A stretch of DNA of 54,971 nt from an uncultured Lentisphaerales bacterium (GTDB lineage: Bacteria; Verrucomicrobiota; Kiritimatiellia; RFP12; JAAYLN01). The stretch lies in NCBI GenBank assembly GCA_964592855.1, contig CAZQKI010000003.1, positions 1,273-56,243 of the forward strand. The letters run 5' to 3'. A program made the position numbers and the translations under genes. The notes beneath the pieces are model-generated. The model was not told where the DNA came from. It ran no database searches and was given only the letters and a program-made list of their open reading frames with translations. Positions 3 to 44,462 of this stretch are shown piece by piece; position 1 is the stretch's first letter; the number at the start of each line of letters is the position of its first letter.

Positions 3-2993
3 GTCATCACGCACGCCCAGGAAACCGCGCTGAAGGCCTTTCCGGTTGAGCCCAACGCCTTCTACCGGCTCTCCTTCGAGGCCGAAGGGGCCGCGGCGCC
101 GGCGGTTCGGTGGACCATCCATCAGGTCGACGGCGAGGGTGAACTGCCTTACGACGGCTGCCTCGAAGCCGACTGGCAGCATCTCCGTGCAGGGGAGTCC
201 CGTTATCACCACGACTTCCTGACAGTCGGCGATGCGGTCGAGCTGCGGTTCAGCCTGATCCCCGCGGCACGCGCGCCGGCGCTGAAGTCGGTCACCCTCG
301 AGCGGATCACCGTGACGAATCTCATGTTGAACGGCGACTTTGCGCTGGGTGCAGGCAACCAGTCGGGCTGGAACGAGATGCACGGGGCGACGGTGATCGG
401 GGAGGGAGGCACCAACCTGCTGCAGGTCAACCCGAACGGCTATGCGCTGAGCGACTGCTTCCCCGTTGCCGATCAGGGCGGCTACACCTTCGTCAAGGGC
501 GCCAAGACGTGGCCGGGCGTCGCCGTGCTGGCCTATGACCGCAACCGGCGGCTGATCGACCGCGTACCCTACGCATTCAGAAACCGTCCGCCTTTGCGGA
601 TGCCGGCCGGCGCCGCATACGCCCGTCTGCTGTTCACAACCAGCCACGATCACATTCCCTCCTTCTGCACCAACCGCATCGTTTTCACGGGTCTGTTTCC
701 GTCCGGAACCAATCCGCCCCCCGCGCATGCGCCCGCCGTGCGGTTGCGGGCGGATTCGGAGATTGTCGTGAGCCCGCACGCCGATCCGCGCGAAGTCCAT
801 GCGGCGCGCGAACTGCGGCACTGGATCGGGGCGATCTCCGGCAGGACGCCGACGCTGCTGGCACGCCCGTCGGTCAAACGCAACGTTAAACTGCATGTGG
901 GCATCTCCCTCGCAGGTGCTTTCCGCGAGGATCTGGCGTGGCTGAAAGGATCCGACGGCTATGCCGTCAGAAGCCGTGACGGCGGAATCTACATTTTCGC
1001 GGCCAAGCCCCGTGGCACGCTCTTCGGCGTCTACGCGCTGCTCGAGCGCAACTCGGACATCCTCTGGCCCCGTCCGAATCCCGCTTTCGAAGCGATCTTC
1101 ACTCCCGATCCCGGCCTTGCGTTCAAGGCGGCCGACTTCCGGTCGCGCCCGGTATTCGCCCTGCGCCACATCAGCACGGGCGGCTATGACGGCGAGCGGA
1201 ATGCGTTCCGCTTCCAGGACTGGATGGCGCGCAACGGGTTGAACACCGACACGCGGATGCACCGGGGGCTCGACTACCTCGTCTGGCAGCGCGGCGCACC
1301 GGCCGTCTACGGCACCAGCCACATCGGCTGGCTCGGCGCGGCTCCCGACCGCGATAACACCCTCTATCCGCTGATCGACGGTGCGCACAGCATCAGCCGC
1401 TGGCGCCAGCCCTGCTACACGCACCCCGACACGGTCCCGACCATCGTCGCCGCGATCCGGGCCAAGCTCGCACTGCTACCGGACCAGCCGGTCGAACAGG
1501 TCCACTCGATCATCGCCGACAACTGGAGCGTCTGCGCCTGCGCGCGCTGCATGCAGCCGATCCGTCTGCCCGACGGCAGCCTGCTGAAACCGCAGTCGCC
1601 TTACGCCAACAAGGACTCGCTCTTCTTTTCGACGCGCAATTTCATCATGCTCAACGCCGTCGCGGAGGCGCTGGCCAAGGACTTTCCCAACCTGCGCATC
1701 CTCACCCACGCCTACATCTTCACGGCAGAGCCGCCCAAAGTGCCGGTTCACCCGAACATCATTCCGCAGTTTGCCGCCTATCCGACGCAGAACGCGCGCT
1801 ATCCGATCCTGGCCGGCAAAGGGATGCCGCTCAGCGAATATTCGGCCGACGTCTGGAAACGCCGCTTCGCGGGGTGGGGAACTTGGAAACCGGATGGCCT
1901 GGGTTTCTTCGGCTACTACTACATGCCGGGCTTCAATGCGCTGGCCGAAACGGCGGCGGACGATTTCAGGGACCTGGCGCGATTCGGCGGGGTCTATGTC
2001 CACACCGAAGGCTTTCCGGTCGACGACGAAGCGCTTTCGACCTGGGATGTCGACGGCCCCGAGAAGTGGATCATGGCCCGGCTGATGTGGGACCCCGCCC
2101 AGTCCGCTGCCGACTTGCGTGACACCTATATTCAAAAGGTGTACCGCGAGGCCGCGCCGCAAATGCGAGCTTTTCACGCGCTCATCGGGAAGGCCTGGCA
2201 TGACGAGGCGAACGATCTTTTTGTGAATTGTCACTCCCAGGTCCGGGATCTTTACGAAGGCCTGCTGGTAAAGCCGGGAATCGAGCAGGAGGCGCGTGCG
2301 CGGCTGGTCGAGGCCGCTGCCGCGGCACAGCATCCCCAGGCGAAGGCGATGATCCAACGGACCCTGGCGCATTTTGATCAGTTCAGGGATAGCCTGGGTA
2401 GGCATGTGGTGCCGCTCGTGGAGGAGTCGCGTCAGGCATGGAGCGACGCCGTCTCGCCCCACTGGGAGAAGGCGCTGGTGCTCGGGCCGTTCAAGCAGGT
2501 GGACGACTGGCGGCGGTTTGAGGGTGCACTCGCCGTGCATCAGACCGAGGTGCGCATCATGCACGACGGCGAACAACTGTACATCCGGGTCGTGGCCCAT
2601 GACGATAGGCCCGGCGAAGTGGTGGCCCCGCCGAAAGCTGAGACCGAGCGCTTTCCGAACGGCGACCGCTTCGAACTGATCGGTGTCGGCGGAAAACCCG
2701 GGCGCCGGTATTTCGCGGCCGGTCCGAACGGCAACCGCTACGCCGATCCGAAGACCGATACCCCCTGGCGGGTTCAAACGACTGTGCGGCCCGATGCCTG
2801 GATAGACATGATCGCCATTCCACTTGCGGAGTTCGGTCTGAACCCGGCGGATCCAACCTTCAAAGCCAGGGTGGGGCGGGTCTACCGGCTTGCAGGCGAG
2901 GTGCGCGAAGAGAGCACGCCGAGCGGGACCAGCCTCTACAACGAGCACGAATCGTTTTGGATGACCCTGAATCTGGAAAGGAAGGAGCGCTGA
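3..2993 (+). CDS. DUF4838-family putative carbohydrate-active protein (5' partial) with N-terminal CBM-like domains and a C-terminal sugar-binding domain
   Basis: The frame is open from position 3 (VITHAQETALKAFPVEPN...) into the 312..2993 ORF, so the gene starts off the left edge. It has a GH20/GH67 N-domain-like segment (AARELRHWI...DGYAVR...GTLFGVYALLE), the DUF4838-type DNxxxCxCxxC motif, and MARLMWDP. Confidence 0.75.
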   Translation, partial: VITHAQETALKAFPVEPNAFYRLSFEAEGAAAPAVRWTIHQVDGEGELPYDGCLEADWQHLRAGESRYHHDFLTVGDAVELRFSLIPAARAPALKSVTLERITVTNLMLNGDFALGAGNQSGWNEMHGATVIGEGGTNLLQVNPNGYALSDCFPVADQGGYTFVKGAKTWPGVAVLAYDRNRRLIDRVPYAFRNRPPLRMPAGAAYARLLFTTSHDHIPSFCTNRIVFTGLFPSGTNPPPAHAPAVRLRADSEIVVSPHADPREVHAARELRHWIGAISGRTPTLLARPSVKRNVKLHVGISLAGAFREDLAWLKGSDGYAVRSRDGGIYIFAAKPRGTLFGVYALLERNSDILWPRPNPAFEAIFTPDPGLAFKAADFRSRPVFALRHISTGGYDGERNAFRFQDWMARNGLNTDTRMHRGLDYLVWQRGAPAVYGTSHIGWLGAAPDRDNTLYPLIDGAHSISRWRQPCYTHPDTVPTIVAAIRAKLALLPDQPVEQVHSIIADNWSVCACARCMQPIRLPDGSLLKPQSPYANKDSLFFSTRNFIMLNAVAEALAKDFPNLRILTHAYIFTAEPPKVPVHPNIIPQFAAYPTQNARYPILAGKGMPLSEYSADVWKRRFAGWGTWKPDGLGFFGYYYMPGFNALAETAADDFRDLARFGGVYVHTEGFPVDDEALSTWDVDGPEKWIMARLMWDPAQSAADLRDTYIQKVYREAAPQMRAFHALIGKAWHDEANDLFVNCHSQVRDLYEGLLVKPGIEQEARARLVEAAAAAQHPQAKAMIQRTLAHFDQFRDSLGRHVVPLVEESRQAWSDAVSPHWEKALVLGPFKQVDDWRRFEGALAVHQTEVRIMHDGEQLYIRVVAHDDRPGEVVAPPKAETERFPNGDRFELIGVGGKPGRRYFAAGPNGNRYADPKTDTPWRVQTTVRPDAWIDMIAIPLAEFGLNPADPTFKARVGRVYRLAGEVREESTPSGTSLYNEHESFWMTLNLERKER

Positions 2994-11268: not shown

Positions 11269-12075
11269 ATGGTGATGAAGTATTCCTTTATGAGTTTTTC
11301 GACGCCGGAACTCGATTTGGCCGCCGTGCTGGATGTCGCGCGGCGCATCGGGTACGACGGCATCGAGCCGCGTCTGGACTCGGGCCATGCCCATGGCATC
11401 GAGGTCGGTCTGTCCCGTGAACGGTGCGACGCCGTCCGTGCGCAGGCCGCCGATGCCGGGATTGAGCTGGCCTGCCTGGCCACCTCCCTGAAGTTTGCCG
11501 ATCCCGCCGCGACGGAGACGGTGCTGGCGCAGACCCGCGAACGGATCGACCTGGCCGGCAACCTGGGCGTCAAGACCGTGCGTGTGTTCGGCGGCAAGAT
11601 CCCGGACGGCATTGAGCGTGAGCAGGCGATCGACCAGGTCGCCCGGTGCCTCGCCGCCGTGGCCGACCAGGCGGAGGCGCGCGGCGTGACGCTGTGCCTC
11701 GAGACGCATGACGACTGGTGTGACCCGCGTCACGTGGCCGCCGTCATGCTTCGGGTCGGCCAGCCGGGCATCGCCGTCAACTGGGATATCATGCATCCGG
11801 TCCGGACGGGCAAGGCGACCATTGGCGAATCCTTTGAAACGCTCCGGCCCTGGATCCGCCACGTCCATGTGCACGACGGGGTGGGTCGGGAACTCAAGAT
11901 GGTGCCGATCGGCACGGGCGAGATCGACCACCGGTCCGCGCTGGCCTGCCTGGCTGCGGCGGAATATGGCGGATTCATCAGCGGCGAATGGATCCGGTGG
12001 GAACCGTACGCGACGCACCTCCCGCGCGAGCTGGAAACGCTGAAGCGCTACGAACGGGCGGCGCGGGGGGGATAG
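11269..12075 (+). CDS. Sugar phosphate isomerase/epimerase (xylose isomerase-like TIM barrel)
   Basis: GYDGIE, LETHD, NWDIMH, HVHVHD, GTGEID, YGGFISGE metal-ligand motifs. SD GGAGG. Confidence 0.88.
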   Translation: MVMKYSFMSFSTPELDLAAVLDVARRIGYDGIEPRLDSGHAHGIEVGLSRERCDAVRAQAADAGIELACLATSLKFADPAATETVLAQTRERIDLAGNLGVKTVRVFGGKIPDGIEREQAIDQVARCLAAVADQAEARGVTLCLETHDDWCDPRHVAAVMLRVGQPGIAVNWDIMHPVRTGKATIGESFETLRPWIRHVHVHDGVGRELKMVPIGTGEIDHRSALACLAAAEYGGFISGEWIRWEPYATHLPRELETLKRYERAARGG

Positions 12076-12341
12076 GGGCGCGATTCAACTTTGTTGAATC
12101 CGCACCCGATTCAGGCGTTAGGAGTTAGGCGTTAGGAGTTAGAAGATTCCATAAAGGGTGTTCTTGGTGTCTTCATGATGAAGACTCAAAGCTTTTTGCG
12201 GCAAGCCTGATCCTGAGAAGACTCAAGCTCAAAAAGGGCACCATGTTTTCGCGGGTTGTTGCGCAGACAATGCCTAACTCCTAACGCCTAGCGCCTAACT
12301 CCTTTGGTGCGATTCAGTTTCAACTAAACTGAATCGCACCC
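12076..12341. repeat. Composite intergenic element: REP-like hairpins plus inverted heptamer arrays, flanked by a 9-bp direct repeat
   Basis: Hairpins at 12082-12100 and 12306-12340. (AGG[A/C]GTT)x4 at 12113-12140 and about 5 reverse-complement units at 12269-12303. GGGGGATAG at 12067-12075 and 12342-12350. Confidence 0.75.
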
Positions 12342-12367
12342 GGGGGATAGAGCAAAACATTTTGGGT

Positions 12368-12396
12368 TTGCTTTTTCGGGGGGGATTCACTACGAT
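12368..12396 (+). promoter_or_regulatory. Sigma70 promoter of tRNA-His
   Basis: TTGCTT-17 bp-TACGAT, 18 bp upstream of the tRNA. Confidence 0.6.
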
Positions 12397-12414
12397 TGTG
12401 GTGTTTTCCGACAT

Positions 12415-12491
12415 GGCGATAGTAGCTCAGTTGGTAGAGCGCCAGATTGTGGTTCTGGATGTCGCGGGTTCGAGCCCCGTCCATCGCCCCA
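12415..12491 (+). tRNA. tRNA-His (GTG)
   Basis: Cloverleaf with D-arm GCTCAGTTGGTAGAGC, anticodon arm CCAGA-TTGTGGT-TCTGG and T-loop GTTCGAG. Encoded G-1:C73 and CCA. Confidence 0.97.
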
Positions 12492-12496
12492 TTTTC

Positions 12497-12532
12497 AAGA
12501 CCGGTGGGTGAAGACCCGCCGGTCTTTTTTTT
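12497..12532 (+). terminator. Rho-independent terminator after tRNA-His
   Basis: AAGACCGGTGGGT-GAAG-ACCCGCCGGTCTT stem-loop followed by a T run. Confidence 0.85.
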
Positions 12533-12807
12533 ACGGCGGTGCGCCTGGACCGCAAAAAGCCTCTGGTTTCCATGCGGTTCTGTCATTTGCGGTTCATTTT
12601 TGCTCGTTTATTGCTTGAATCAGCGAAGCCAAACAGTTGTCAAAGGACGGCTGTTCCGGTAAAATACCGCCGACCGTCGACGTTCAGTGCGAACTGCCGC
12701 TGTTGTTTAAACATTACGGCAAGACGGAAATGGAATTGAGAGGGGTTTGCTGCGGCTTCGACAACCCCTCCACCGACTGGAGTCAGCAGACGAGAGAAGG
12801 TCTTTTT

Positions 12808-13806
12808 ATGTCAAAGAGTGTTGTGATTCGTTCATTGGGTGCCTGTCTGCCCAACCGGCGCGTTTCGAATGACGAGTTGGCGCAGCAGATGAACGTGGAT
12901 ACCTCGGATGAGTGGATTCGTTCCCATACGGGGATCGGGTGGCGTCATATCATCGACGACGGTCAGACCAATGCCGACTTGGGGATGGTTGCTGCGCGCG
13001 AGGCCCTGACGCGGGCCGGGGTTGAAGCAGCCGACATTGACCTGATCATCCTTTCGACGACCACGCCCGATTACATCGGCTGCCCGTCGACGGCCTGTCT
13101 GGTCCAGGATAAGATCGGCGCGATCAATGCCATGGCCTTTGACATTACCGCGGCCTGTTCAGGCTTCGTGTACGGGGTGACGGTTGCCAAGAGCATGCTG
13201 CTGACCGGACTTGCCCGGCGCGCCCTGGTCGTCAGTTCGGAAGCGCTGACCCGGGTGACGGACTGGTCGGACCGCAACACCTGCGTCCTGTTCGGCGATG
13301 GCGCCGGCGTGGCGCTGTTGGAAGTCTCCGACGCCGAAAATCAGGGCATTCTGAATACGCGCCTGCGTGCGGACGGCAGCGGATGGGAATACATTGTGAC
13401 GCGGGACGGGGGCTGTGCCAACCCCTATCAACGTGGCAAGATGGCCCAGCGGAATCCGCCCGTGATCGAAATGAAGGGCAAGAAGGTCTATGCCTTCGCC
13501 ATCAAGGCGATTCCCGAGATTGTGCAGGGACTGGTCGCGGATGCCGGGATCACCCTGGAAGACGTCAAGTGGATTGTTCCGCATCAGGCCAACGGACGGA
13601 TCATTCAGGCGGCTGCGAGCCAGATGCAGATTCCGGAGTCCCGGTTCTTCGTGAATCTCGAACAGCGCGCCAACACGTCGAGCGCGTCAATTCCGATTGC
13701 CCTTTATGATTTGGAGGCGCAGGGAGGACTGCAGCGCGGCGATCTCATCGCCATCGTGGGGTTTGGCGGAGGTTTGACATCTGCCGGCGCGTTGATTCGC
13801 TGGTAG
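12808..13806 (+). CDS. fabH: 3-oxoacyl-ACP synthase III
   Basis: DTSDEWIRSHTGI, DITAACSGF (Cys), LFGDGAG, VPHQAN (His), ANTSSAS (Asn), GFGGGLT. Confidence 0.95.
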   Translation: MSKSVVIRSLGACLPNRRVSNDELAQQMNVDTSDEWIRSHTGIGWRHIIDDGQTNADLGMVAAREALTRAGVEAADIDLIILSTTTPDYIGCPSTACLVQDKIGAINAMAFDITAACSGFVYGVTVAKSMLLTGLARRALVVSSEALTRVTDWSDRNTCVLFGDGAGVALLEVSDAENQGILNTRLRADGSGWEYIVTRDGGCANPYQRGKMAQRNPPVIEMKGKKVYAFAIKAIPEIVQGLVADAGITLEDVKWIVPHQANGRIIQAAASQMQIPESRFFVNLEQRANTSSASIPIALYDLEAQGGLQRGDLIAIVGFGGGLTSAGALIRW

Positions 13807-13853
13807 AGCGTGTGAGCAAACTGAAACGTCCATGCCGATAACAAGGAACTAAT

Positions 13854-15104
13854 ATGCAGCGTAGAGTGGTGATCACAGGACTGGGCACGATAAACCCATT
13901 GGGCAATGATGTGGCATCCTTTTGGGAGGGTATACAGCAGGGGCGCAGCGGCGTCGGCCCCATCACCCGCTTTGATCCGGCTGCCCTGGAAGTCAAGATC
14001 GCGGCGGAGGTCAAGGGATTTGTCCCCGACCAGTGGATGGATGCCAAGGCAGCCCGCAAGATGGCGCTTTTTTCGCAGTATGCCGTGGCCGCCACGGCGC
14101 AGGCGCTGCAGGATGCCGGCTTGAACCAGGAGACCCTCGAACCGCTCCGCACGGGCATTGTCATCGGCAATGGCATCGGCGGATATGAAATCATCGAAGA
14201 GTCGATGGGCAAGTATTTTGCACAGGGTCCGCGCCGCATTCTCCCCTTCACGGTGCCGCAGATCATCTCGAACGAGGCGGCCGGCAATGTGGCCATGGCC
14301 TTTGGCATCAAGGGTTTTGCGCTGACCAGCGTGACCGCTTGCGCGTCGGGTACGGATGCGTTGGGCGCGGCGCTTGACCTGGTGCGCCACGGGCGCTGCG
14401 ATGTCTGTGTTTCCGGAGGGACGGAATCCGCGATCACGGGGTTCGGCATAGCCGGGTTCCAGGTCATCCGCGCGCTCTCCACCAAGTACAACGCGACCCC
14501 TGCCAAGGCCAGCCGTCCGTTCGACCGGGACCGGGATGGATTCATCATGGGCGAGGGGGCCGGCATTCTCATTCTCGAATCGCTGGATCATGCGCTGGCC
14601 CGCGGGGCCCGGATCTATGCCGAACTGGCGGGGTATGGCGTCACCTGCGACGCCTACCACCTGACGGCCCCCGATCCCGAGGGCGCGGGCGGGGCGCGGG
14701 CCATCAAGCTGGCCTTGGAAGATGCCGGCATCCGGCCGGACGAGGTGCAATACTACAACGCCCACGGCACCTCCACGCCGATCAACGACCCGCTGGAGAC
14801 CAAGATGATCAAGCTGGCCTTCGGCGACCATGCCAGGGCCATGAAGATTTCAAGCACCAAAAGCATGACGGGGCATCTGATTGCCGCGGCAGGTGCGGTC
14901 GAGGCACTGGCCTGCGTCCTGGCGATTCAAAATGGATTCTACCCACCGACGATCAACTTGGAAAATCAGGATGTCGAAGGCGGTTGCGATCTCGACTATG
15001 TGCCGAACCATGGGGTTCGCGGCGACATTGAGGTTGCCGTCTCCGGTTCGCTTGGCTTTGGCGGACATAATGCCGTAATTGTCATGAGGAAATACCGAAC
15101 ATGA
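13854..15104 (+). CDS. fabF: 3-oxoacyl-ACP synthase II
   Basis: RRVVITGLG, TACASG, SRPFDRDRDGFIMGEGAG, NAHGTST, KSMTGHL, GFGGHN. Confidence 0.95.
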   Translation: MQRRVVITGLGTINPLGNDVASFWEGIQQGRSGVGPITRFDPAALEVKIAAEVKGFVPDQWMDAKAARKMALFSQYAVAATAQALQDAGLNQETLEPLRTGIVIGNGIGGYEIIEESMGKYFAQGPRRILPFTVPQIISNEAAGNVAMAFGIKGFALTSVTACASGTDALGAALDLVRHGRCDVCVSGGTESAITGFGIAGFQVIRALSTKYNATPAKASRPFDRDRDGFIMGEGAGILILESLDHALARGARIYAELAGYGVTCDAYHLTAPDPEGAGGARAIKLALEDAGIRPDEVQYYNAHGTSTPINDPLETKMIKLAFGDHARAMKISSTKSMTGHLIAAAGAVEALACVLAIQNGFYPPTINLENQDVEGGCDLDYVPNHGVRGDIEVAVSGSLGFGGHNAVIVMRKYRT

Positions 15105-39700: not shown

Positions 39701-42700
39701 CTTCATCGTGCCGCCGGTCGGCATCTCGATCGTGAAGACCGCAGGCACTGCACCCGACGGCGGCGTCTATTGGACGCTACCCGGCACCCCCGTCACCTAC
39801 ACCTATCGCGTGACCAACACCGGTGAACTGGCGATCGTGCGAATGACCGTGAGCGACGACAAGCTCGGCCTCGTCGGCATGATCGACGGGCCGCTGGCGC
39901 CTGGCGCCAGCACCACGCTGACCAAGGCTTCGTCCGCCCTCTCTGCCGGGGTCACCAACGTCGGCTCCGTGGTGGGGCATCCCGCCAGCTCCGGCGGGCG
40001 TGAGATTCCCGGCGCGCCGCCCGTGCGCGACGACGATGACGCGATTGTCCATATCTACGCCTCCATCGGCGACCTGGTCTGGTACGATGTGAACCGCAAC
40101 GGCATCCAGGATGCCGGCGAAGCTGGCGTCGGCGGCGTGCGGGTGGTTCTGTACGATGGCGCCGGCGCGCCGATCGCCACCAACACCACGGCGGCCAACG
40201 GCCGGTACCGGTTCAACGGACTCCTGCCCGGCGATTATTCTGTGGGCTTCACGACTCCGGCTGGCTATCTGCTCAGCCCGAACGATCAAGGCGCGGACGA
40301 CGCCAAGGACAGCGACGCGGACCTGGTCACCGGACGCACCGTGACCACCACGCTGGTCGCAGGCGAGTACGACTCCACGTGGGACATGGGCCTCTGGAAC
40401 CTGGCGTCCATCGGCGATACCGTCTGGTATGACGTCAACCGCAACGGCATCCAGGATGCCGGGGAGACGGGCGTCGCCGGCGCGACCGTGACGCTTTACG
40501 ACGCCGGCGGAGCGGTGGTTGCCACGACCAACACCAGCGCGACTGGCTTCTACACCTTCACCCGGCTTATGCCGGGCAACTACTCCCTGGGATTCGTCCC
40601 ACCGACCGGCTACCTCTTCAGCGCCGCGGATCAGGGCGCCAACGACGCCAAGGACAGCGACGCCATCCCCGCAACCGGGCGGACGATCGCAACCACGCTG
40701 AGCGTCGGCGAGAATGACATGACGTGGGATGCCGGCCTGTGGCGCCCCGCATCCATCGGCGACTTCGTCTGGTACGACGCCAACACGAACGGTCTGCAAG
40801 ATATCGGCGAAGCCGGAGTCGCCGGTGTTCTGGTCACACTCTACAACGGGCTGGGCCAGGTGGTGGCCACAACCAACACTGACGCCGCCGGCCGATACGG
40901 TTTCATAAACCTGGTTCCTGGCGACTACTCGGTCGGTTTCGCCCGTCCGACGGACTACCTGTTCAGCCGGCGCGACGCGGGCGGGGACGACACCGCGGAC
41001 AGCGACGCCGATACGACGACCGGACGGACCGCCATCACCACGCTGGCGCCCGGCGAGAATGATCTGACCTGGGATGCGGGCATGTACCTGGTCCGCGCAT
41101 CGATCGGCGATCGCGTGTGGCACGATGTCAACGCCAACGGCGTTCAGTATCCCGCCGAAACGGGCGTTCCGAACGTGGTCGTGAACCTCTTCCGTGCGGA
41201 CGGCAGCACGCTGGTCGGCACGACGAGCACCGATGCGAACGGACACTACGGCTTCCCGAACCTCGAGCCTGGCGACTACTTGCTCGCCTTCACCCCCCCT
41301 GCCGGCTACCAGATCAGCCCGCGCGACCAAGGCTCGGATGCATCGGACAGCGACGTTGATCCGATCTCCGGCCGGACGATTGCGACGACGCTCGCCCCGG
41401 GCGAGGATGATCTGACGTGGGATCTTGGCATCTACCGTCTGGCTTCCCTGGGCGACACGGTCTGGGACGACTCGAATGGCGACGGCGTGCAGGACCCGGG
41501 TGAACCCGGTGTGCCGAACGTGACCGTCACGCTCTATGGCGCAGGCGGAGCTGTACTGGCCACGATGCCTACCGACGCGAGCGGGAATTACCTCTTCCCC
41601 GGTCTCGTTCCCGGCGTCTACTCGGTGGGCTTTGCCCTTCCGGCCGGATATGCCTTCACGTTGCGCGACCAGGGCGGCGACGGCGCCGACAGCGACGCCG
41701 ATACCACCACCGGACGGACGATCACCACGACGCTTCAGTCGGGCGAGAACGATCTGACCTGGGATGCCGGCATCTACCGGCCGGTGAGCCTGGGCGACCG
41801 CGTCTGGCTCGACGTTGACCGCGACGGTGTTCAGGAAGCCGGCGAGGCCGGGTTCGCGGGCATCACCGTGACGCTCTACAACGCGGGTGGCAGCGCCATC
41901 AGCAACAGGGTGACCGATGTGAGCGGGAACTACTTCTTCGGTGGCCTGCCGCCGGGAACATACCATGTTGGATTCGCCGTGCCGATCGGCTACGCCCTGA
42001 CTGTGGCGAACCAGGGTGACGATGCCCTGGACAGCGACGCCGACCTCGTGACCGGCCTGACTCCTACGACCACGCTGCGCTCGGGGCAGAGCGACCTCAC
42101 GCTGGACGCAGGGATGTACCGCCTGACCGCCGATCTGGAGTTGACCAAGACCGCCACACGCGATTGCTTCCCGCCGAAGTGGACGATTCCGATATCGAAG
42201 GGCGAGCAATACGTGACGGGCGACTACTGGTTGCGGATCGAGAACAACCAGCCGAGCTTCGACGTCTGGGGACCGGGAAGCATGATGGCCGGCGTGGACA
42301 TCAGCCGCACCTGGCACCAGGTGGCCGGGCGCTTCACGCGCGGACCGGCGGCGTGGGGCCCGCACAAGATGGAGATCCTGGTGGATGGCGTGGTTGTGGC
42401 GACGAGCAGCCAATGGGGCACGACCGACACCAGTTCCGCCGCGCTCTTCCTGGGATCCTATCTTGGAACCCACTACTTCTACGCGGGTGCCATGGATGAA
42501 GTGCGCCTCTCGGGGACGGCCCGGAGCGACGCCTGGATGCGTACGAGCGTTGCGCAGCAGAACTCGCCATCGACCTTCCTGACCACGGGTGCCGAAGCCG
42601 CCGGCACGGTCTACGGCTATGAGAAGACGCTGACGGTTCAGGGCTCGGCCGTGGCCGGAGCGCTGACGGACTTCCCGGTGCTGGTGAGTCTGGTCGATGC

Positions 42701-44462
42701 CGACCTGGCCGCCCGCGTGGGCACGGCGGAAGGCTGGGACATCGGCTTCACGCTGCCGGACGGCACGCCGTTGGCGCACGAGGTCGAGCAATACTACGCC
42801 TCCAGCGGCACGCTCGTCGCCTGGGTTAAACTTCCCGCACTCGCCGCAGGGACGGATACGACCTTTGTGATGCACTACGGCGACGCCGCGGTCGCGGCGG
42901 CGACGGAGACACCGGCTGACGTCTGGGACGCCGATTTCCGCATGGTGCAACACTTCGAGGAGACGACGGGGCCGGTGCTGGACTCGACGGCCAATGGAAA
43001 CGATGGCGTCGTTTCAGGAGCCTGGTTCACGGCCGCCGGTTCCGCTGACGGCGCGTACTTGTTCGACGGCGTAGACGACCAGATTGAGGTGCCCGATTCG
43101 CCGAGCGTGCGGTTCGTGAACACGGACTTCACGATCGAGGGATGGTACGCACGCGAGCTGCCGCGCAAGGAATTCGTTGTCACGGTGACGAACCGCGGAC
43201 CGGATCAGGCGACGCGCGTGACGGTGTTGGACCCCCTGGGCACGACGATGGGCTACGTGACGTCCGATGCATCCCAGGGCACGTACGACCCAGCGACGGG
43301 TATATGGACGGTCGGAACAATGGATCTGAATACGGTCGCACGGCTCGTGCTGGTGGTTGATCCGCTGGCCGCGTCCGTCGTGAACCGGGCCGAAGTGGCG
43401 ACATCCGATGCCGCCGACCCCGATTCGACGCCGGGCAACGGCGTCGTCGGTGAAGACGATCAGGCGCAAGCGTCACCGCCAGGCTGCGGGTCGACAGAGC
43501 CTCCTGTTGGTCCAGGCGTTCCGGACAGTCCGGCAATCCAGATTGTCAAGGTGGCAGGTACAGCGCCAGACGGGACGGTTCTGACCGTTGCCAGCGGTGC
43601 GAACGTGACCTATACCTACACCGTGTACAACATCGGCAACGTGACACTGACGGGCATCACCGTAACGGACGACAAGCTCGGTGCGGTTGGCGTCGTGCCG
43701 ACCCTCTTGATCGGGCAGTCGGCCGTGCTGACGGCCGTGGCCTCCAACGTCACCGCCGATGTCACGAATGTGGCCACTGCGGTCGGCAACTGCGGCGCGG
43801 CCCAGGCGACCGACACCGACAACGCGGTGGTGGTCATCGGGACTGGCGGATCCTCTGGTGGCGGCGTGCCCGCTATCTGGGATCGTGCTGATTTTGCGGT
43901 GACGCACCAGGAGTTCATCGGCCCTGCGCCGACCGTGGTGGGCGAGGTTTTTGCGGTGCGGGTGACGGTTGCGAACCGAGGCCAGATCGCCGGCAACGCC
44001 GGGAACCTGGGCGTCTTCGTGGCGCACGCGGATCCGGTGGTGATCGGCGAGGCCGGCCAGGCGCAGGTTTCCATCGGCGTGCTCCAACCGGGGCAGAGCC
44101 GTGCCTTGGAGATCGGCGGACTGGTGGCCACGGAACGTGGCACGCAGTTGCTCCGTTCCTATGCAGACATCGGCGATTTGACCGACGAATGGAGCGAAGG
44201 TGACAACCAGTTGACGCTGATGTACCAGATCAGTCCGATTTTCATGCAGATTCAGCCGGTGGCGGGAAAGATCGAGTTGTCCTGGAACAGCTACTGGGGC
44301 GACCGGTACATTGTTTACCGCGCCGCGGGACTGGGGGCACCGTACGTGCCGCTGGCGACGGGCATCGAGGCTACGCCGCCGACGAACGGGTTCATCGACA
44401 CGAACCCGCCGGCTGGCGGAGCGTTCTACAAGGTCGGCGTGCAACCGTGGGCAGCTTGGTAA
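36795..44462 (+). CDS. Giant secreted surface protein/adhesin: DUF11/isopeptide-type Ig domains, 7 SdrD B-like repeats, permuted DUF2341-LamG insert, CARDB-like domain, C-terminal FYKV domain
   Basis: 2555 aa with a signal peptide. Repeated xxK(S/D/W)...Y.....N.G.....D.LP domains; GDxVWxDxNxxGxQD repeats; DFPVLV...HEVE...AWVKLP; FDGVDD, DEVRLS. Confidence 0.92.
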   Translation: MSRTEVGSVGLVLSRAVLSVLLLGWASVASAGLEVTKSIQNGLTTVPSGQTFTYKLQYRAASTTTDFFGATLTDILPPGIEYQSLVGTVHVASFAYTAATRTLRVVFIDPLPAGSTGEILVNVRFPQGVTLPGTVATNTATMAAINAPPAVAPPVTITATAANRATATKSLVGGSVPLDQNVTYTVSANNSQTAGALNATALTLLDNLPTGAVFVAASGGGVYDPGSHTVTWTAASLSAGSTFSRTLTIMYPSSAFALGAKATNDLSVTLTPLGGVPTNLTARTVHNIVAPVANSTFTKDVNANYVYEGKTASKTWTFALQNTGNVPLYDVVVTDAIPAQVQVTSINSGLSSGTPPGLNDPIGVFYKTTLNGTWTNTPGSPYPGSASVTVPVSTLGLAPGEFITDLKWEFGTLPVGYSIGSLQFASTILTNGWDGQPVLAGQTITNVGRLAYTDFTGPKTKSDPATIPVKTARPVAELAKSASPSTVNDGSVTTFTIRLTNRSEAAQPLIDPVLADLLDAKLVYVPGSWTVASKPAGAPDPLFETIPNFTGSRTLLRWRWDGAASYSLPANSYIEMRFRANIPAGTIYGGINNDLTLAKWSNTALDTASATGITDTFDLDGDGITAETVYYRRTALTVTARASMDSVKWVRGELDADWSKYPNSGLTVPGGRADYRLIVSNTGNVPIRNAAILDILPTLDDTGVIDLSQRDTEWKSALAGPVVAPPGVTVYYSRELDPTRLDFDPSGPPGSEPAYWSTNPPATLIEARALKFVFTGIVIQPGASYELTWPMRAPVATPTDGRVAWNSFGYYGTRTDSSTLLLPSEPIKVGIAVQPDTNAVYGDRVWYDTNRDGVQDAAETGVNGIRVRFYEDSGAGGFPDGVVNTNVDRYVGYTITADDFNGQAGYYLFPNLDRGHYYAVFDIPPGYEVSPKDAGTDDAQDSDVDALTGAAPITWLDDEETDLTWDLGLFIVPPVGISIVKTAGTAPDGGVYWTLPGTPVTYTYRVTNTGELAIVRMTVSDDKLGLVGMIDGPLAPGASTTLTKASSALSAGVTNVGSVVGHPASSGGREIPGAPPVRDDDDAIVHIYASIGDLVWYDVNRNGIQDAGEAGVGGVRVVLYDGAGAPIATNTTAANGRYRFNGLLPGDYSVGFTTPAGYLLSPNDQGADDAKDSDADLVTGRTVTTTLVAGEYDSTWDMGLWNLASIGDTVWYDVNRNGIQDAGETGVAGATVTLYDAGGAVVATTNTSATGFYTFTRLMPGNYSLGFVPPTGYLFSAADQGANDAKDSDAIPATGRTIATTLSVGENDMTWDAGLWRPASIGDFVWYDANTNGLQDIGEAGVAGVLVTLYNGLGQVVATTNTDAAGRYGFINLVPGDYSVGFARPTDYLFSRRDAGGDDTADSDADTTTGRTAITTLAPGENDLTWDAGMYLVRASIGDRVWHDVNANGVQYPAETGVPNVVVNLFRADGSTLVGTTSTDANGHYGFPNLEPGDYLLAFTPPAGYQISPRDQGSDASDSDVDPISGRTIATTLAPGEDDLTWDLGIYRLASLGDTVWDDSNGDGVQDPGEPGVPNVTVTLYGAGGAVLATMPTDASGNYLFPGLVPGVYSVGFALPAGYAFTLRDQGGDGADSDADTTTGRTITTTLQSGENDLTWDAGIYRPVSLGDRVWLDVDRDGVQEAGEAGFAGITVTLYNAGGSAISNRVTDVSGNYFFGGLPPGTYHVGFAVPIGYALTVANQGDDALDSDADLVTGLTPTTTLRSGQSDLTLDAGMYRLTADLELTKTATRDCFPPKWTIPISKGEQYVTGDYWLRIENNQPSFDVWGPGSMMAGVDISRTWHQVAGRFTRGPAAWGPHKMEILVDGVVVATSSQWGTTDTSSAALFLGSYLGTHYFYAGAMDEVRLSGTARSDAWMRTSVAQQNSPSTFLTTGAEAAGTVYGYEKTLTVQGSAVAGALTDFPVLVSLVDADLAARVGTAEGWDIGFTLPDGTPLAHEVEQYYASSGTLVAWVKLPALAAGTDTTFVMHYGDAAVAAATETPADVWDADFRMVQHFEETTGPVLDSTANGNDGVVSGAWFTAAGSADGAYLFDGVDDQIEVPDSPSVRFVNTDFTIEGWYARELPRKEFVVTVTNRGPDQATRVTVLDPLGTTMGYVTSDASQGTYDPATGIWTVGTMDLNTVARLVLVVDPLAASVVNRAEVATSDAADPDSTPGNGVVGEDDQAQASPPGCGSTEPPVGPGVPDSPAIQIVKVAGTAPDGTVLTVASGANVTYTYTVYNIGNVTLTGITVTDDKLGAVGVVPTLLIGQSAVLTAVASNVTADVTNVATAVGNCGAAQATDTDNAVVVIGTGGSSGGGVPAIWDRADFAVTHQEFIGPAPTVVGEVFAVRVTVANRGQIAGNAGNLGVFVAHADPVVIGEAGQAQVSIGVLQPGQSRALEIGGLVATERGTQLLRSYADIGDLTDEWSEGDNQLTLMYQISPIFMQIQPVAGKIELSWNSYWGDRYIVYRAAGLGAPYVPLATGIEATPPTNGFIDTNPPAGGAFYKVGVQPWAAW
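40062..42122 (+). repeat. Six tandem SdrD B-like (Ca-binding) domain repeats, about 345 bp each
   Basis: Unit starts at 40065, 40410, 40755, 41103, 41448 and 41790; a seventh copy starts near 39315. Confidence 0.9.

Follow-up and report, generated by a model that had tools for sequence, protein, structure and literature searches.

The adhesin gene described here can be compared with two kinds of known protein: lectins such as concanavalin A, which is permuted post-translationally, and RTX adhesins, in which one domain interrupts another. In the RTX adhesins AhLap, FrhA and MpIBP, as presented in the passages of PMC12077191 that deal with them, split domains project ligand-binding domains, lectin-like or other, which leave the split domain after its first strand; split-domain units of RTX adhesins are also treated in part of PMC10865825. 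For circular permutation in general, the relevant section of PMC13552848 names duplication followed by truncation as a likely general route and as the most probable one. Here we analyzed a window (the whole stretch under study, 54,971 nucleotides of contig CAZQKI010000003.1 from an uncultured Lentisphaerales bacterium) that contains the gene of a fibrillar adhesin-like secreted protein of 2555 amino acids (aa). We consider it likely that this protein carries a conserved adhesin module in which a DUF11 domain acts as a split domain and projects a circularly permuted DUF2341-LamG head. A literature search, judged by titles or abstract openings, found no published account of such a circularly permuted architecture of DUF11, Laminin_G_3 and DUF2341.

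The module runs in the order DUF11 strand A, LamG C-terminal part, DUF2341, LamG N-terminal part and DUF11 remainder, with an insert of about 330 aa seated after the first strand of the immunoglobulin (Ig)-like DUF11 domain. The original prediction, made from the sequence alone, had parted the first DUF11 strand from its remainder by about 331 aa and had placed the C-terminal half of LamG before DUF2341 and the N-terminal half after it. Both statements are upheld by the positions of the motifs, all of which were located: ADLELTKTA at aa 1779-1787 (nucleotides 42129-42155), ISKG at 1800, WHQVAG at 1840 and DEVRLSG at 1901, followed in the second half by DSTANGNDG at 2063, FDGVDD at 2090, FTIEGW at 2112-2117, EFVVTVTN at 2126 (nucleotide 43170) and DPDSTPGN at 2208-2215. 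Plain DUF11 domains likewise open with ADLxLxK, and here this opening motif lies 338 aa upstream of the Pfam match to DUF11 (PF01345; 66.2 and 71.4 bits), which starts only at aa 2126 and covers profile positions 20-106 of 114. The match to Laminin_G_3 (PF13385; 37.2-37.9 bits) is also partial, spanning profile positions 43-148 of 151 at approximately aa 1808-1913, and it stands upstream of DUF2341 (PF10102; 30.7, 33.0 and 34.2 bits at aa 1981-2065). All three families exceeded their Pfam gathering cut-offs (24.6 bits for DUF11, 27.6 for Laminin_G_3 and 23.4 for DUF2341). DUF11 and Laminin_G_3 were thus found incomplete and in the predicted order, and not as complete, colinear matches. The right linker of the window copy, ARELPRK, is two residues shorter than that of the other 10 aligned modules and is without the xVxxxD motif that in those modules corresponds to the 'VGD' turn of DUF11.

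Comparison with a second protein, P0064 (2082 aa), shows the same parts in a different order. P0064 has two DUF2341-LamG modules in the usual order within DUF11, at aa 1045-1488 and 1508-1954. With the window module as the query (q coordinates are its residues), the LamG C-terminal part (q27-174) matched P0064 1235-1380 with 44% identity (E 3e-35), and DUF2341 together with the LamG N-terminal part (q171-349) matched P0064 1045-1228 with 45% identity (E 1e-34), from where P0064 continues directly into its LamG C-terminal part. The DUF11 remainder (q355-460) matched P0064 1384-1490. On this stretch of P0064, Pfam gave DUF2341, then a contiguous Laminin_G_3 (7-148 of 151), then DUF11 (13-107). 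P0064 reads continuously as FTVEGWF-NWNSGP-WTIPISKG; in the window, FTIEGWY enters DUF11 and KWTIPISKG follows DUF11 strand A. The breakpoint is therefore a LamG loop that has 5-6 residues in P0064 (NWNSGP or KPRSS). The permuted and unpermuted nested forms also have a common host site, after ADLxLxK and a few more residues and before xVxxGDxxFxITVxNxGP, to within about 3 residues. The two proteins are alike in the host domain, in the site after strand A, in the insert parts (38-45% identical) and in their adhesin make-up (SdrD_B, DUF11), and their C-terminal ends are similar by eye; P0064 differs in that its insert runs DUF2341, LamG N-terminal part, LamG C-terminal part, with LamG contiguous. 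Because P0064 carries this insert, in the usual order, at the corresponding position of DUF11, with the two halves matching in swapped order and with clean breakpoints, the insert is, on sequence homology, a true circular permutant of the DUF2341-LamG unit, as had been proposed.

Structure models are consistent with the closure of both folds, which the original prediction had expected, although closure is read from aligned ranges. AlphaFold2 with 20 sequences gave a confident, compact model with a predicted local distance difference test score (pLDDT) of 89.5 and a predicted template modelling score (pTM) of 0.85, and with pLDDT 84-95 in the LamG N-terminal part; with 11 sequences the corresponding values were 76.8, 0.71 and 39-60. 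In VIA-align comparisons, chains of the Ig, CARDB and CLIPPER types superposed 103-116 residues across model positions 7..462 (e.g., 9ifr_A with Z 10.8 and 112 of 123 residues, 1ayo_B with Z 9.7 and 3idu_A with Z 8.9). Because these alignments extend across the whole range, strand 12-19 and residues 355-462 would make up one sandwich, and the DUF11 sandwich is, in the model, complete including its first strand ADLxLxK. Concanavalin A (ConA)-like chains aligned over 159-177 residues of model positions 22..325/357, exceeding the 149 residues of the C-terminal part and skipping DUF2341. Examples are 6lvb_A (Z 16.7, root-mean-square deviation 2.4, 177 aligned), 8i5a_A (Z 15.1) and 4dqa_A (Z 13.9, 159 over 22..355); pentraxins gave Z 11-13, and laminin/neurexin LG domains and pentraxins overall Z 9-13. 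From these alignments we infer that both LamG pieces together form a ConA-like jelly roll. The three example chains are a dimethylformamidase (6lvb_A), an N-acetyl-beta-phenylalanine acylase (8i5a_A) and BACOVA_03559 (4dqa_A), and they align through both LamG pieces in the order of the window; judged from the model, their ConA-like domains may have the permuted strand order too, or else an insert at the equivalent position. When the two LamG pieces were modelled as separate chains, the interface score ipSAE was 0.55 against 0.00 for the best control, a value in the weak support band, with partner pLDDT of at least 52 and with runs agreeing in at least 75% of contacts. In calibration, passes at or below 0.60 occurred in only 7 of 80 solved complexes and in both mismatched pairs that passed, so that this band is often wrong unless the pairing is likely beforehand. 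Foldseek with the whole model against the PDB returned only long, poor multi-sandwich matches (integrins) with TMq 0.14-0.18.

The permuted module is widespread among related proteins. Among 301 proteins scanned with segment hidden Markov models (HMMs), 17 carry 21 further complete permuted nested modules, besides the window's own and its duplicate entry; only P0064 has unpermuted nested modules (two), 108 proteins have non-nested units, and P0140 has one more permuted copy that is interrupted by the contig end. In other assemblies, six proteins align with 99-100% of the module and are 52-54% identical to it, and four of the six contain it twice; a search of 1.84 billion representatives gave 12 end-to-end module matches in the best 150 of 25,833. 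One near homologue is labelled by its source as a Kiritimatiellae metagenome-assembled genome. In an alignment of 20 modules, identity to the window copy is 41-56% and invariant residues occur in all four parts; those of the LamG N-terminal part are F321, G323, T344, E346 and W348. The module has also been duplicated whole within proteins. None of 40 relatives has a complete module; three have only array-type partial matches and 37 have no match at E<=1e-20. Because 21 further copies at such identities exist in 17 other proteins, the permuted arrangement is, on these comparisons, old and conserved and not recent.

Outside DUF11, DUF2341-LamG units normally occur free in tandem arrays, in proteins of up to 7264 aa (P0122; further examples are P0124 and P0148). 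In these arrays the end of LamG passes to the next DUF2341 after about 10 residues, as it does within the window insert, and aa 1940-2062 of the window protein (linker and DUF2341) are the equivalent of this natural connection from LamG(i) to DUF2341(i+1). The domains are homologous and the internal junction is the same, but the array units are free-standing, colinear and un-nested. Array proteins of relatives match q66-352 of the window module in one stretch, and the whole insert is colinear with a slice of [DUF2341-LamG]n that extends from one mid-LamG to the next. The window's own genome has another gene with the usual DUF2341-LamG order (contig C183), and in P0069, P0149 and P0215 an array is followed by complete DUF11 domains. 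In a genome of the same family as the window's (G008), at least 19 DUF2341-LamG unit matches were found; the many open frames that contain them are about 650-1065 aa long and lie on short contigs (e.g., L005, L008, L010-L013), and this number of matches in many frames indicates, at the level of sequence, a large expansion of array-type proteins there.

Phylogeny groups the nested inserts of both orders. A careful maximum-likelihood tree was built from 92 segments of DUF2341 plus the LamG N-terminal part (20 permuted, 2 unpermuted nested and 70 of 282 array units, the latter being the 45 best-scoring and 25 random ones). In this tree, a branch with support 100/92 parts all 22 nested rows from the 70 array rows; the 20 permuted rows form a group of their own at 99/71, as do the two P0064 rows at 100/99; a quick tree was concordant with lower support. 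The usual order is ancestral because every array unit has it. The simplest history suggested by these sequences is one nesting event followed by one permutation. No intermediate with two units nested in one DUF11 was found among 254 proteins scanned.

The original prediction had offered a different history, namely that a circular or tandem-repeat-derived fragment had recently integrated into this genome by microhomology, a freshly caught event of domain shuffling. The 7-bp repeat on which it leaned is real: on the plus strand of the window CACGCGA occurs only at 42157 and 43150, at the two junctions, 993 bp apart and in frame with each other (the reverse complement is present 9 times in the window). 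It is only marginally beyond chance, however, because among 200,000 random draws of equal-sized window pairs from the 55-kb sequence 7.7% shared a 7-mer in any register and 2.9% in frame. The left copy (42157-42163) lies mostly in the linker RDCFPP, which is variable across aligned modules, and it encodes T-R-D, residues absent at that place from all 10 other modules of the alignment; of the right copy, only the R is conserved. CACGCGA therefore arose in the window lineage long after the rearrangement, and it cannot be its scar because the rearrangement is older than a sequence divergence of about 50%. The recurrence of the same junctions in 17 other proteins, often twice per protein, likewise runs counter to a fresh capture, as does the failure to find an insert-free orthologue: the first 700 aa of the adhesin were found in only one of 40 relatives (34% identity) and in none of 6 same-genus genomes (completeness 55-93%). 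We therefore consider recent integration highly improbable. That the arrangement is an assembly chimera or misjoin is less probable still, to the point of being negligible. The gene is repetitive and the metagenome bin comprises 430 contigs, but both junctions are covered by contigs assembled from other lake metagenomes, and for this reason the arrangement is not a misassembly. Single contigs of 8.7 and 8.0 kb from two runs, possibly the source samples, cover 41900-43700 with 0 differences; run X12, from another study, has separate contigs across the left (41900-42271) and right (43088-43325) junctions, also with 0 differences, and run X11 has a contig across the left junction. Contigs thus span both junctions, where the original prediction had asked for long reads, and independent assemblies encode the same architecture.

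If the arrangement is genuine and old, the LamG pieces might still have ceased to be a domain, the insert being a decayed remnant tolerated as a functionless loop expansion. The low pLDDT of the LamG N-terminal part in the shallower model and its failure to match Pfam by itself would fit such decay. The deeper model, in which this part is confidently placed, the invariant residues of both LamG pieces across 20 modules, and the duplication of whole modules all speak against it, and decay appears to us very unlikely. More weight is due to independent capture, in which the same A-B loop of DUF11, being permissive, took up an array slice running between the middles of two successive LamG domains, in an event separate from the nesting of the unpermuted insert. 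The colinearity of the insert with array slices is what such a capture would leave, the arrays themselves running as alternating LamG C-terminal parts and DUF2341-plus-LamG N-terminal parts with gaps of about 10 aa; moreover, only one unpermuted nested protein is known, and the hosts are not united by the host DUF11 tree. Nevertheless, the nested inserts of both orders group together apart from the 70 sampled array units, they sit at the same host site within a few residues, and they have in common a distinctive LamG C-terminal part (WTIPISKGxQ..GDYWL) that most array units match only partly. We regard independent capture as improbable.

The preferred reading is that the A-B loop of DUF11 ancestrally held a DUF2341-LamG insert and that this insert underwent a single permutation long ago. 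P0064 and the tree point to permutation of an already nested insert, and do not favor the fresh insertion into an intact DUF11 that had been assumed. Most likely, the insert would first have been duplicated in tandem, or have recombined with a tandem array, and the outer pieces would then have been lost. The tandem-repeat-derived origin put forward by the original prediction thus remains plausible given the colinearity with an array slice; its microhomology-mediated integration is left without support. The new ends of the insert, lying in a short LamG loop, would have the geometry that a budding insert needs, with DUF2341 bridging the old LamG C- and N-termini. In the resulting protein, the chain would leave the DUF11 sandwich after its first strand, build the LamG jelly roll and DUF2341, and then return to finish the sandwich, so that the insert would be held out sideways from the stalk of the fibrillar adhesin.

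The module is probably a ligand-binding head; from its modelled fold, we infer that the ConA-like part binds a ligand, probably a glycan. By analogy, the protein is expected to work like RTX split-domain adhesins. One may speculate that the permutation, by attaching LamG directly to the stalk and leaving DUF2341 distal, changed the presentation of the binding face. It is a tentative and somewhat doubtful further step to suppose that the permutation was selected for re-hanging the lectin head in this way, with both permutation states and the free arrays that could have supplied a duplicated intermediate being preserved in the family; if true, circular permutation would here have served in nature to re-orient the ligand-binding domain of an adhesin.

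Several points weigh against this reading. Ligand binding is putative throughout and comes from fold matches of the ConA-like, pentraxin and CBM40 types. Contact between the LamG pieces is deduced from aligned lengths and ranges, pTM and a weak complex score rather than seen directly, and the LamG N-terminal part scanned alone (70 aa) gave no Pfam match, so that this piece of the expected profile-scan result did not appear. The unpermuted nested form is known from one protein (P0064, two copies on one contig), and a search with the P0064 module yielded no second such protein (55 proteins at E<=1e-30, the others covering at most 76%; the proteins searched were of 1145-3644 aa). The array rows of the tree are a sample (70 of 282) and its bootstrap is not fully settled, and the tree of host DUF11 domains (103 rows, 106 columns) neither unites nor separates the hosts. 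Finally, among 21 Pfam families at E<=1 there was no RTX or haemolysin-type Ca-binding family and no type I secretion system signal. Since RTX repeat families are absent from these matches, the 2555-aa protein is not an RTX adhesin.

The host protein begins with a hydrophobic, signal-like segment, and its Pfam make-up comprises DUF11 in 5 stretches, seven SdrD B-like domains (812 bits), DUF7507 in 4 stretches, CARDB and a single DUF2341 (see the table below for coordinates). Its last approximately 60 residues (44270-44459, aa ~2493-2555), with IELSWNSYWGDRYIVYRAAG, PPTNGFIDTNPP and FYKVGV, resemble by eye the C-termini of P0007, P0064 and P0114; a Pfam scan of the 2555-aa protein gave no family over this region, which could be a conserved sorting or FN3-like domain. 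The gene belongs to a bin of 5.16 Mb in 430 contigs (93% complete), and the metagenome runs that contain its DNA are from lakes and freshwater. Its neighbors are an RND efflux pair, a TMEM260-like protein with tetratricopeptide repeats (TPRs) and esterase-like proteins, none with an apparent functional link to the adhesin. Downstream, the 779-aa open reading frame (ORF) has no Pfam family, and the 1465-aa protein has a TMEM260-like O-mannosyltransferase domain; a glycosyltransferase that adjoins a giant surface protein might modify that protein. Elsewhere in the window, GC content falls to 0.57 at 12001-14000, compared with 0.60-0.67 in the rest.

Table 1. Parts of the adhesin gene and its permuted module, with two downstream genes, in window coordinates.
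Feature	Position	Strand	Basis
Fibrillar adhesin-like secreted protein gene, 2555 aa	36795..44462	+	ORF, translation, Pfam
DUF11 first beta-strand (strand A), ADLELTKTAT, aa 1779-1788	42129..42158	+	Located motif; strand E12-19 in both models
Left linker RDCFPP, aa 1789-1794, strand A into LamG C-terminal part	42159..42176	+	Motif location, alignment
LamG/ConA-like C-terminal three quarters, aa 1795-1939	42177..42611	+	Pfam Laminin_G_3 profile 43-148, P0064 homology
Linker and DUF2341, aa 1940-2062 (Pfam match aa 1981-2065)	42612..42980	+	Pfam, array architecture
LamG N-terminal quarter, aa 2063-2118, ends FTIEGWY (approximately Laminin_G_3 profile 1-42)	42981..43148	+	P0064 homology
Right linker ARELPRK, aa 2119-2125, back into DUF11	43149..43169	+	Contains right CACGCGA (43150-43156)
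Remainder of split DUF11 (strand B onward), aa 2126-2228	43170..43478	+	Pfam DUF11 71.4 bits, segment HMM match
ORF, 779 aa	44851-47190	-	
TMEM260-like O-mannosyltransferase domain protein with TPRs, 1465 aa	47481-51878	-	

Overall, the locus is a natural case in which circular permutation, domain insertion and a tandem-repeat source are all visible in living sequences, and in which the permuted form has clearly been retained and duplicated. It reveals no new mechanism or system and is a neat rather than revolutionary example of domain shuffling. The route of permutation by duplication, and its effect on the presentation of the binding head, are testable by expressing both nested forms. The arrangement also carries over to uncultured freshwater bacteria, with their adhesins of the DUF11/SdrD type, a rule known from RTX adhesins, namely that ligand-binding domains are projected by split domains; the extended rule helps to locate binding heads in giant adhesins.

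The arrangement combines two known things, the circular permutation of ConA-like domains and the split-domain presentation of adhesins. With concanavalin A, as compared with favin and other ConA-like permutants in the section of PMC13552848 on these proteins, the window module shares a circularly permuted ConA-like jelly roll; it differs in that its permutation is genetic, the old termini are joined through a second domain, DUF2341, and a third domain encloses the whole. The split-domain layout itself is present, with an Ig-like host interrupted after its first strand and with insert ends that are the two sides of the short P0064 LamG loop. As in the RTX adhesins covered by those passages of PMC12077191, the chain leaves an Ig-like sandwich once the first strand is made, forms a domain whose termini are adjacent (in the window protein, a putative binding domain) and then completes the sandwich, and the unit belongs to a long stalk in which Ig-like extender domains are repeated. 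Unlike those adhesins, the window protein has DUF11 as the host and DUF2341-LamG as the head, and its head is circularly permuted, a feature that those same passages do not describe.

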